Positions 15,007 through 16,663 of a stretch of DNA of 28,166 bases are shown here, piece by piece. Source of the DNA: Chlamydiales bacterium (GTDB taxonomy: Bacteria; Chlamydiota; Chlamydiia; Chlamydiales; SM23-39); contig DATECD010000153.1 in the NCBI GenBank assembly GCA_035287065.1, forward strand, positions 1 through 28,166, read 5' to 3'. Positions within the stretch are counted from its first letter, which is position 1. Every line of letters starts with the position of its first letter. The translations under genes were made by a program, and so were the position numbers. The notes under the pieces were generated by a model that made no database searches, was not told where the DNA came from, and saw only the letters and a list, made by a program, of their open reading frames with translations.

Positions 15007-15807
15007 TTAGTCCAGTGGTAGATTAAAGTAAGTTTCAAAAAACCTTGTCAAATTGCCAAGGATCAAAACAGAAGAAGAGACTCTGGCTAATCTAAAGGGG
15101 AGTCCCGCATAAAGCGCTGTAACACCATTGGATGCATAGATCTCTTTTGCTGTTGCAAAGCTTGAAATGTTTTTCTCGAATACTTGCATCACAGATCCTG
15201 TCACAGCAAGGGGTTGCGAAAGAAAGGCTGTTGTAGACCCTATGCCAATTCCAGAAATCACAACGGTTAAAAATTCCGATATCCCTTTTTCTTTACACTT
15301 TTTTGCAAGCAATGGAACGCCCCCAAAGACACCTGCAAAAAAGAGTCCCTCTCTTACAAGAAGAGGGGAAAATCCTATGAAAAACCCTTTTGTTTTGTAT
15401 GCGCTATAAATGGCTTTTGTTGCTTGCGATGCAGTTTCGTGTGGATATTTTTGCTGTCTTGTCATCACCATTTCCATGGGACACATAACAAAATTGGAGA
15501 GAGCTCCACCTGTAAACCCTGCAAGGAGACGCCTTTCTGTCTCGGATCGATCTTTTGAGATCACCCGCTCAAAGAAAAGGCGTCCAATTGTTGTTTGGAT
15601 GGTGTCTACAGGTAAAGATCCTGCGCAATGGACACCAAATCCTGAATAGAGAATTTTTGGGTTTAGTGTCCAAGGAAGGTGCGTAGAAACTCTTACGCCA
15701 AAGGCCCATAAAGGGTGGTTCACTGTTGCTTCAATGCAGCCAAGAGTCATTCCCATCCCAAGCGCGTGATAGATCGATGTAGCTCTAGGGTTTATATTAT
15801 TCGTCAT
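15007..15807 (-). CDS. Mitochondrial carrier family (SLC25-like) protein B, 266 aa
   Basis: Start moved to ATG 15807 (11-nt overlap with the carrier A stop). Three-fold repeat: 'NHPLWAFGVR...LYSG', 'CPMEMVMTRQQ...FFIGFSPLLVRE', 'QPLAVTGSVMQ...NGVTALYAGLPFRLARV'. Confidence 0.85.
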   Translation of the reverse strand: MTNNINPRATSIYHALGMGMTLGCIEATVNHPLWAFGVRVSTHLPWTLNPKILYSGFGVHCAGSLPVDTIQTTIGRLFFERVISKDRSETERRLLAGFTGGALSNFVMCPMEMVMTRQQKYPHETASQATKAIYSAYKTKGFFIGFSPLLVREGLFFAGVFGGVPLLAKKCKEKGISEFLTVVISGIGIGSTTAFLSQPLAVTGSVMQVFEKNISSFATAKEIYASNGVTALYAGLPFRLARVSSSVLILGNLTRFFETYFNLPLD

Positions 15808-16663
15808 GGGATGCGCGCAAGAGTGGGTGGTTTGGAAAATTGGCTCTGAGTAAGAGAGCGATAGGTCCAAGAAGTGCGTTCGTAGAGCCAAGAGTCATGG
15901 CTCTTGCTCCGATACCAGAACAAAATAGCGATCTTAGCCCTTCTATTTTTACAATATTTCGGACTACTTGCGTAACTGAGCGATCAGCGCCTATGCTCCC
16001 TTGCATTCGTGTTTTGACCAGATCAAAACTATTTGTCATGGATCCAGAGACAAAACCAGAAATTGTGTAGCTAAGACACTCTTTCGCAATTTCAGTGATC
16101 TCATTTTTTGGGAGATCAACTGCACGATCGAGTTCTTTTCTTATAATTCTTGAAAGCCCAAAGAAACATGTCGAAGTCCCCATCTCTCGCGCAATTGTTG
16201 GAGTGAGACCTTTAAATGCCCATTTCACCCCTTCTTTTTTCCACAGATGCATTGCAATCCCAAAAGAATTGAGAACCTTTTGGCTTGCAGGATCTTTAAA
16301 GCTTTTTTGTTTCAAGATCATCACTCTTTCGCAAGGGGTTAAAGGGAAAGCTGCGACAAATCCTGAAAAAGCGCCACCTAGGCACTTCTCTGTATCTGAC
16401 CCAGATCGTCCATTTAAAATGGTTTGAGAGAAGAAGTGGTTTGCATAGAAGTTGGTGATTTGGCAAGTCATGTCGCAAACCAGATTGATCGGGTACCCTC
16501 GATAAAGAGATTTCACGCTCATTTCGGGCGGGTGTCCTCCAGGGGATTGCCGATAGGTTTTGTAAGTAAAAAAGGGTTGCGTAATGGAAATGTTGCAGAA
16601 ACTTGCAATTCCGCCATTTAGCATTGCTCCTAGAGAAGTCAGGTCGTTAATTTCGGTTGTCAT
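15797..16663 (-). CDS. Mitochondrial carrier family (SLC25-like) protein A, 288 aa
   Basis: Start moved to ATG 16663 (GAGG SD upstream). Three-fold repeat with carrier signatures 'QPFFTYKTYRQ...LYRG', 'TPCERVMILKQ...KEGVKWAFKGLTPTIARE', 'NSFDLVKTRMQ...IEGLRSLFCSG'. Confidence 0.92.
   Translation of the reverse strand: MTTEINDLTSLGAMLNGGIASFCNISITQPFFTYKTYRQSPGGHPPEMSVKSLYRGYPINLVCDMTCQITNFYANHFFSQTILNGRSGSDTEKCLGGAFSGFVAAFPLTPCERVMILKQKSFKDPASQKVLNSFGIAMHLWKKEGVKWAFKGLTPTIAREMGTSTCFFGLSRIIRKELDRAVDLPKNEITEIAKECLSYTISGFVSGSMTNSFDLVKTRMQGSIGADRSVTQVVRNIVKIEGLRSLFCSGIGARAMTLGSTNALLGPIALLLRANFPNHPLLRASHDE

Follow-up and report, generated by a model that had tools for sequence, protein, structure and literature searches.

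The subject of this report is a pair of adjacent genes, here called carA and carB, that code for proteins of the mitochondrial carrier family and lie on the minus strand of a 28,166-nucleotide (nt) stretch of DNA from a Chlamydiales bacterium (contig DATECD010000153.1 of assembly GCA_035287065.1). This stretch, referred to below as the window, makes up one entire contig of a metagenome-assembled genome (MAG) of 1.39 Mb and 80.6% completeness. The gene carA (15797-16663) encodes carrier A, a protein of 288 amino acids (aa) that starts with MTTEIND, and carB (15007-15807) encodes carrier B, with 266 aa and the start MTNNINP; the start codon of carB is located inside the last codons of carA, giving an overlap of 11 nt. 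A Shine-Dalgarno-like GAGG, read directly from the sequence, is present at 16673-16670 on the same strand, 6 nt before the ATG of carA. A preliminary description of this DNA, made from its letters alone, had proposed two adjacent, overlapping carrier genes with a Shine-Dalgarno site ahead of the first, and the two same-strand open reading frames (ORFs) lie precisely where it placed them, with the motif ahead of carA. The two genes head a six-gene operon, in which they are followed, in order, by genes for an amino-acid hydroxylase of the PF10014 family, a LysE exporter, a B3/4 editing-like protein and an ACT protein.

Profile searches with the Pfam model Mito_carr, the cut-off of which is 22.3 bits, recovered carrier A with an E-value of 9.3e-26 (89.9 bits) and carrier B with 1.8e-19 (69.7 bits). 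A profile of the A-type sequences retrieved from the PDB UCP1, UCP2 and the ADP/ATP carrier (AAC) with E-values of 4e-20 to 1e-14, along with Ggc1 and a 2-oxoglutarate/malate carrier. AlphaFold2 modelled each protein with six long and three short helices, with a predicted local distance difference test (pLDDT) score of 88.9 and a predicted template modelling (pTM) score of 0.87 for A, and of 86.1 and 0.83, respectively, for B. The model of A matches the solved structure of human UCP1 (8hbv) with a template modelling (TM) score of 0.75. Among the Swiss-Prot entries of the AlphaFold database, the structural matches of both models are exclusively SLC25 proteins, with TM scores of about 0.7-0.78 (0.70-0.78 for B) and 13-22% identity; for A, glutamate and 2-oxodicarboxylate carriers rank highest, and carriers for glycine and for basic amino acids appear lower in the list. 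By both profile and fold, therefore, A and B genuinely belong to the mitochondrial carrier family (SLC25, PF00153). The lack of a Mito_carr match or of a six-helix fold had been named beforehand as a reason to discard this assignment, and both the match and the fold are present. The three-fold repeat reported earlier holds for the six-helix, three-fold layout of the models, whereas at the level of individual hidden Markov model matches only repeats 2 and 3 are significant in A and in B. The other features attributed to the pair, namely intron-less genes, an almost complete lack of N-terminal extension (about 9 residues before helix 1 in the model of A and about 6 in that of B) and strong divergence between the two proteins (16% identity in the multiple alignment), are all borne out. 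As a separate observation, the same genome contains a third, very diverged carrier-like ORF of about 245 aa (G000:C16:3983-4153; L005:1465-2199, minus strand), which scores 19.8 bits with Mito_carr, below the cut-off, and forms a long branch near the A-type sequences in the FastTree tree.

The locus is found in data other than its own MAG. A Logan contig of 2431 nt, obtained in a groundwater run, is identical without mismatch to positions 14640-17070 and spans the dioxygenase, carrier B, carrier A and permease genes; the read depth is even over the locus with no joints reported, and near-identical DNA occurs in metagenome runs from groundwater, soil, wastewater and freshwater that stem from at least five studies. 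No RNA runs holding the locus were found among the public sequencing runs. Relatives with similar genes are MAGs assigned to Parachlamydiaceae, Parachlamydiales and Chlamydiae. The placement of the carriers in a bacterial chromosome is likewise upheld by their neighbours, which, according to Pfam, comprise bacterial genes for an APC permease, PF10014, LysE, B3_4 and ManC proteins. As junction-spanning public contigs exist and three other chlamydial assemblies show the same gene order, a chimeric assembly is excluded and eukaryotic contamination ruled out, which agrees with the earlier judgement that host contamination was unlikely.

The A-type profile detects 116 cluster representatives (at 50% identity) with E<1e-30, most of them of 250-300 aa with one full-length match, and the gene context was bacterial in all five cases inspected. 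Matches to Mito_carr are present in 26 of the 103 genomes of the same GTDB family, and matches to the B-type profile (E<=1e-10) in 50 of 300 genomes of the order; the A-type and B-type lineages co-occur in several chlamydial families. In the phylogenetic trees, computed with FastTree and IQ-TREE (LG+C20), the A-type sequences constitute one group, with a Shimodaira-Hasegawa-like approximate likelihood ratio test (SH-aLRT) value of 95, and the B-type sequences belong to a superclade with a value of 94. Together, A and B are set apart from eukaryote-like sequences and from other chlamydial carrier lineages (SH-aLRT 95). Since the eukaryotic sample comprised only about 18 sequences, mostly citrate-carrier-like, this split denotes shared ancestry relative to those sequences only, and not the direction or date of a transfer. 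Forcing the window's A and B together with their orthologues on a second Logan contig (L013) costs 102.5 log-likelihood units and is rejected by the approximately unbiased (AU) test with p=0.0002. The branching of the pair formed by carrier A and its L013 orthologue mirrors that of carrier B and its own, and the A-type genes of three further loci (L014, L016 and L053) mirror the branching of their second carriers. A and B are old, co-inherited paralogues that did not arise by local duplication, and their sequences place them in a large, mostly chlamydial bacterial branch of the mitochondrial carrier family.

The preliminary description had instead derived the pair from a host-to-symbiont transfer followed by duplication, and the adjacency of the genes and the similar first residues of their products would be in keeping with a recent transfer and a local tandem duplication. 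However, the AU test rejects A and B as sisters, each is nested in a large and old bacterial lineage of its own, and no close eukaryotic donor was found, the best identity to any eukaryotic protein being about 26-28% by sequence and 13-22% in the structural matches. At the level tested, a recent transfer with local duplication is refuted; we hold this origin, taken together with contamination or chimerism, to be very improbable. Given the separate old lineages and the lack of a close eukaryotic donor, any transfer from eukaryotes should have been ancient, predating a large bacterial radiation. In the literature searched, bacterial mitochondrial carriers were found only for Legionella, Neorickettsia and Cardinium, and none for chlamydiae. 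Bacterial carriers as such were thus already known, and what is new here is a distinct, large, operon-integrated and pairwise-inherited bacterial clade with a rewired gate.

This rewiring is apparent from column counts on a 165-sequence alignment. The acid position of helix 1, which is D/E in 17 of the 18 eukaryote-like sequences, is F/Y in 57 of 82 A-type sequences, W/F in all six B-type sequences and mostly aliphatic in the B-superclade. The base position of helix 3 is K/R in 16 of the 18 eukaryote-like sequences, and Met in 67 of 82 A-type, four of six B-type and 18 of 31 B-superclade sequences. Clade-wide, the salt bridge between the helix-1 acid and the helix-3 base is hence replaced by an aromatic or aliphatic residue paired with Met, and the two other matrix bridges, between the helix-3 Glu and the helix-5 Lys and between the helix-5 Asp and the helix-1 Lys, are kept. 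This exchange of a salt bridge for a hydrophobic contact defines the clade. Carrier A displays the gate motifs PFFTYK in helix 1, PCERVM in helix 3 and SFDLVK in helix 5. These deviate from the family signature PX[DE]XX[KR]X[KR] in having Phe at the helix-1 acid position and Met at the helix-3 base position; helix 5 is canonical save for a Pro to Ser change, and two of the three matrix salt bridges remain. In neither A nor B do the aligned positions hold an acid/base pair of the cytoplasmic network, [FY][DE]XX[KR] on helices 2, 4 and 6, which reads Y-E..K, Y-E..K and Y-[ED]..K in the eukaryote-like set. Nevertheless, the family assignment holds because profile and fold match, and the gate is best regarded as a derived variant.

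The substrate-binding site is conserved in a different manner. Contact point II is R159-E160 in carrier A and likewise R-E in carrier B; R-[DE] is present at this point in 79 of 82 A-type and 30 of 31 B-superclade sequences, and its counterpart in the alignment with UCP1 is the Arg of helix 4. A small, neutral contact point I is accompanied by Arg at contact point III in the B-type sequences, including carrier B, and by a residue other than Arg in the A-type. The R-[DE] pair at contact point II has been described as a signature of amino-acid carriers (PMC6769469), and the nucleotide-type G[IVLM] is found there in neither A nor B. The motif thus predicts a binding site of the amino-acid type for both proteins, and its combination with contact points I and III would point to neutral amino acids.

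Immediately downstream, with its start 9 nt after the carrier B stop, is the gene for an Fe(II)/2-oxoglutarate dioxygenase of the PF10014 free-amino-acid hydroxylase family (14050-14997, minus strand; Pfam 2OG-Fe_Oxy_2, 2e-24, 86.8 bits). It is followed at 22 nt on the same strand by the gene for the LysE-type amino-acid exporter (13416-14027, minus; Pfam LysE, 5.1e-29, 101.6 bits), then by that for a stand-alone B3/4-domain protein, a homologue of the editing domain of PheRS (12495-13406, minus; Pfam B3_4, 9.6e-16), and finally, overlapping the latter gene by 13 nt, by that for a protein with ACT_7, a small-ligand-binding regulatory domain (12124-12507, minus; Pfam ACT_7, 4.4e-12). Apart from the 22 nt between the dioxygenase and LysE genes, the joints of the operon are overlaps or 9 nt. 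In a sequence search of the PDB, the dioxygenase gave only weak BsmA-domain matches and the B3/4 protein no match. Divergently oriented upstream of carA is a gene for an APC-family amino-acid permease (16784-18184, plus strand; Pfam AA_permease_2, 2.8e-69). The region between carA and this permease gene contains no Rfam element, even at E<=1; a weak sigma-70-like site is present at 16719-16690, but such sites are no commoner than in shuffled sequence, and in general neither promoter-like nor terminator-like sites exceed their frequency in shuffles. Enzymes of the PF10014 family act as hydroxylases of free Leu, Ile and Thr, and an exporter is part of their known operons (PMC3684760). We posit that the oxygenase, the exporter, the homologue of a tRNA-editing domain and the carriers might together form a module for making or handling a non-proteinogenic amino acid.

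Elsewhere in the window we noted, from its translation, an 847-aa protein (9594-12137, plus strand) with a signal-peptide-like start and many Gly/Trp/Tyr-rich repeats of about 23 residues, in which recurring 'W..NG' motifs are reminiscent of MORN-type repeats. A long ORF (25484-28165, plus strand) runs off the contig end in a region with raised G+C content (up to 0.53) and a strong GC skew, and a tRNA gene at 23288-23378 (plus strand) is the sole Rfam match in the window at the gathering threshold.

Four assemblies, counting that of the window, share a conserved linkage of carriers to PF10014 and B3_4 genes at 35-69% protein identity, LysE and ACT_7 being optional. L013 retains the same order, with proteins 46-69% identical to those of the window and the permease in the same divergent position (69% identity). 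The JGI/NCBI contig carrying P0016 has the order carrier, carrier, PF10014, LysE, B3_4, ACT_7, and a genome from another family of the order (G251) has carrier, carrier, PF10014, B3_4, ACT_7. The B3_4 gene stays beside the dioxygenase gene in L013, G093, G251 and G001; in G093, LysE and PF10014-B3_4 genes occur without adjoining carriers, and the enzyme module can therefore exist alone. We also observed arrangements that are analogous to the window operon but non-homologous. In two genomes, G057 (L049, C1:168000-186000, about 6771-12820) and G234 (L058), a gene for a TauD-family dioxygenase overlaps that of a B-type carrier and is followed by genes for a tRNA_SAD-like protein (its Pfam match is weak and falls under the family cut-off) and for PAP2; in G057 only, these are succeeded by an A-type carrier gene overlapping that of a pyridoxal-phosphate-dependent enzyme. 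In G310, A-type, B3_4 and LysE genes share one strand and the B-type gene is divergent. One further A-type gene adjoins those for a BrnQ branched-chain amino-acid transporter and a second carrier. Beyond the A and B lineages, a carrier gene from a different chlamydial clade has a thiamine pyrophosphate (TPP) riboswitch (L031, G106:C129, 1924-2022, minus strand; 60.1 bits, above the gathering threshold) on its own strand, about 0.9 kb upstream, and hence at least some chlamydial carriers are regulated within the bacterium's own metabolism.

On these grounds, we propose that A and B serve the pathway encoded downstream as carriers of a neutral amino acid or of the hydroxylated, non-proteinogenic derivative made from it, and that they probably do so in the inner membrane of the bacterium itself. 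We give this proposal as a whole even weight. Translational coupling to genes for cytoplasmic enzymes and the presence in the operon and beside it of bona fide inner-membrane transporters favour this membrane, in which the side corresponding to the mitochondrial matrix would face the cytoplasm; such coupling appears to have been repeatedly reinvented. The LysE, ACT and B3/4 partners likewise speak for a pathway in the bacterial cytoplasm. The weak gates would make A and B net, uniport-like transporters rather than strict exchangers. Somewhat more tentatively, since we place it a little below an even chance, A and B could be the first case of a mitochondrial-type carrier system at work in the cytoplasmic membrane of a bacterium itself, with two co-evolving paralogues, possibly as a heteromer, delivering or withdrawing a neutral amino acid or its hydroxylated analogue in the synthesis of a non-proteinogenic amino acid.

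Several lines of evidence weigh against this proposal. To begin with, the predicted amino-acid class of the substrate comes from motif rules with known exceptions. Further, the best 19-residue Kyte-Doolittle means of the helices are just 0.47-1.25 in A and 0.73-1.64 in B, close to those of the eukaryote-like set (mean 1.01) and far below those of the co-operonic LysE (1.7-2.4) and the permease (1.8-2.9). Secreted transmembrane effectors that escape the signal recognition particle (SRP) typically show such moderate hydrophobicity (PMC12981334). The genome encodes a type III export gate (FHIPEP, 2.9e-222), and the one bacterial carrier characterised so far, LncP, reaches the host by injection (PMC3252375). 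The main alternative is that A and B are LncP-like effectors: type III export would deliver them to the inclusion membrane or to the inner membrane of host mitochondria, where they would release an amino acid or related metabolite, which the bacterium would import through the permease and process with the operon enzymes. The phylum of the organism is obligately intracellular, and one A-type relative (L055, 3381-6876) has the gene of a U-box/TPR protein directly upstream of its own and, close by, that of a PARP-domain protein as well as IS66 genes, a neighbourhood that looks like one of effector genes and is unlike the metabolic operons.

Nevertheless, an effector role sits uneasily with the tight translational coupling of the pair to cytoplasmic enzymes, LysE, an ACT regulator and a tRNA-editing-like protein, and with the recurrence of such metabolic arrangements in three forms across chlamydial families. 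The few residues ahead of helix 1 leave little room for an N-terminal secretion signal of the type III kind, and contact point II is of the amino-acid type instead of the G[IVLM] expected of an ATP carrier such as LncP. Moreover, mitochondrial carriers can insert functionally in bacterial membranes on heterologous expression, and the low hydrophobicity is for this reason not decisive. The operon context thus tilts modestly towards the bacterium's own metabolism and the hydrophobicity of the helices the other way; we view function of A and B in the bacterium's own membrane as evenly poised, and their export as effectors as possible but rather doubtful.

A second set of adverse observations concerns the integrity of the module. 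Carrier B departs from the PX[DE]XX[KR]X[KR] signature further than A does: it alone among the six B-type sequences has additionally lost the helix-1 Lys, the helix-5 Asp and the helix-5 Lys, and therefore none of the three matrix bridges is left. A genome of the same genus (G001, 97% complete) has no A or B carriers, and its PF10014 dioxygenase is frameshifted: at the corresponding locus (L050, C28, 2630-3356) the dioxygenase is split over two frames and followed by LysE and B3_4 genes, with no carriers ahead of it and a tRNA gene at 296-368. The loss in this sister species and the gate loss in carrier B suggest that the module may be decaying in the genus. The pair, or at least carrier B, might accordingly no longer be a working transporter but an intact-looking ORF en route to loss, and the missing cytoplasmic network in both proteins would fit this view. 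Conversely, all six ORFs of the operon are intact with their overlaps kept, carrier B retains the R-E pair and the Arg of its binding site and is modelled confidently, and the near-identical sequence recurs across the metagenome studies mentioned above. We consider decay improbable. Under our preferred proposal of amino-acid transport in the bacterial inner membrane, the loss of all gate salt bridges could instead mean that carrier B is a leaky, channel-like or auxiliary partner of carrier A.

Mitochondrial carriers are regarded as an invention of eukaryotes. The pair described here belongs to a large bacterial radiation, undescribed in the literature searched, with a gate chemistry of its own and with genes that are integrated in metabolic operons just as those of ordinary bacterial transporters are. 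Should A and B work in the bacterial membrane, the family would have a second, prokaryotic life, with the chlamydial clade as a bacterial, operon-integrated SLC25 branch that has a hydrophobically latched gate; being small and naturally expressed in bacteria, such carriers would also be easy models. Should they be injected, they would be candidates for the means by which chlamydiae tap host amino-acid pools across host membranes. Either way, the operon yields a concrete substrate hypothesis, namely neutral or branched-chain amino acids and their hydroxylated products.

Among the closest known systems are LncP of Legionella pneumophila and the Legionella proteins Llo1924, Llo3082, Llo1358 and Lpg1137, which, like A and B, are intron-less carrier-family proteins of about 280-300 aa from an intracellular bacterium (PMC3252375; PMC5621508). 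Judging by its published description, LncP differs from A and B, which have R-E at contact point II, Phe and Met in place of the helix-1/helix-3 bridge, and the form of two co-inherited paralogues inside a metabolic operon. The carriers of Neorickettsia sennetsu and Cardinium are also family members from obligate intracellular bacteria; unlike A and B, they resemble carriers of the nucleotide type (SCaMC-like, PMC6232779) and are encoded by single genes with no reported operonic link to amino-acid enzymes. With the eukaryotic SLC25 amino-acid carriers (GC1/GC2, SLC25A38/Hem25, and the ornithine and basic-amino-acid carriers), A and B share the six-helix fold and R-[DE] at contact point II. The small, neutral contact point I recurs in the glycine carriers, and the glutamate carriers, like the A-type, have no Arg at contact point III. 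Yet A and B are only 13-22% identical to these eukaryotic proteins in the structural matches, have two (A) or no (B) matrix bridges instead of three, lack the cytoplasmic network and are encoded by bacterial genes in an operon. The operon as a whole is closest to those of the IDO/Hil type from Bacillus thuringiensis and Pantoea, in which a PF10014 dioxygenase is co-transcribed with an amino-acid exporter and a non-proteinogenic amino acid is made (PMC3684760). The window operon likewise joins the gene of a PF10014 dioxygenase, whose activity is predicted, to that of an amino-acid exporter; it has LysE in place of RhtA and no reductase, and adds the B3/4 protein, the ACT protein and the two carriers.

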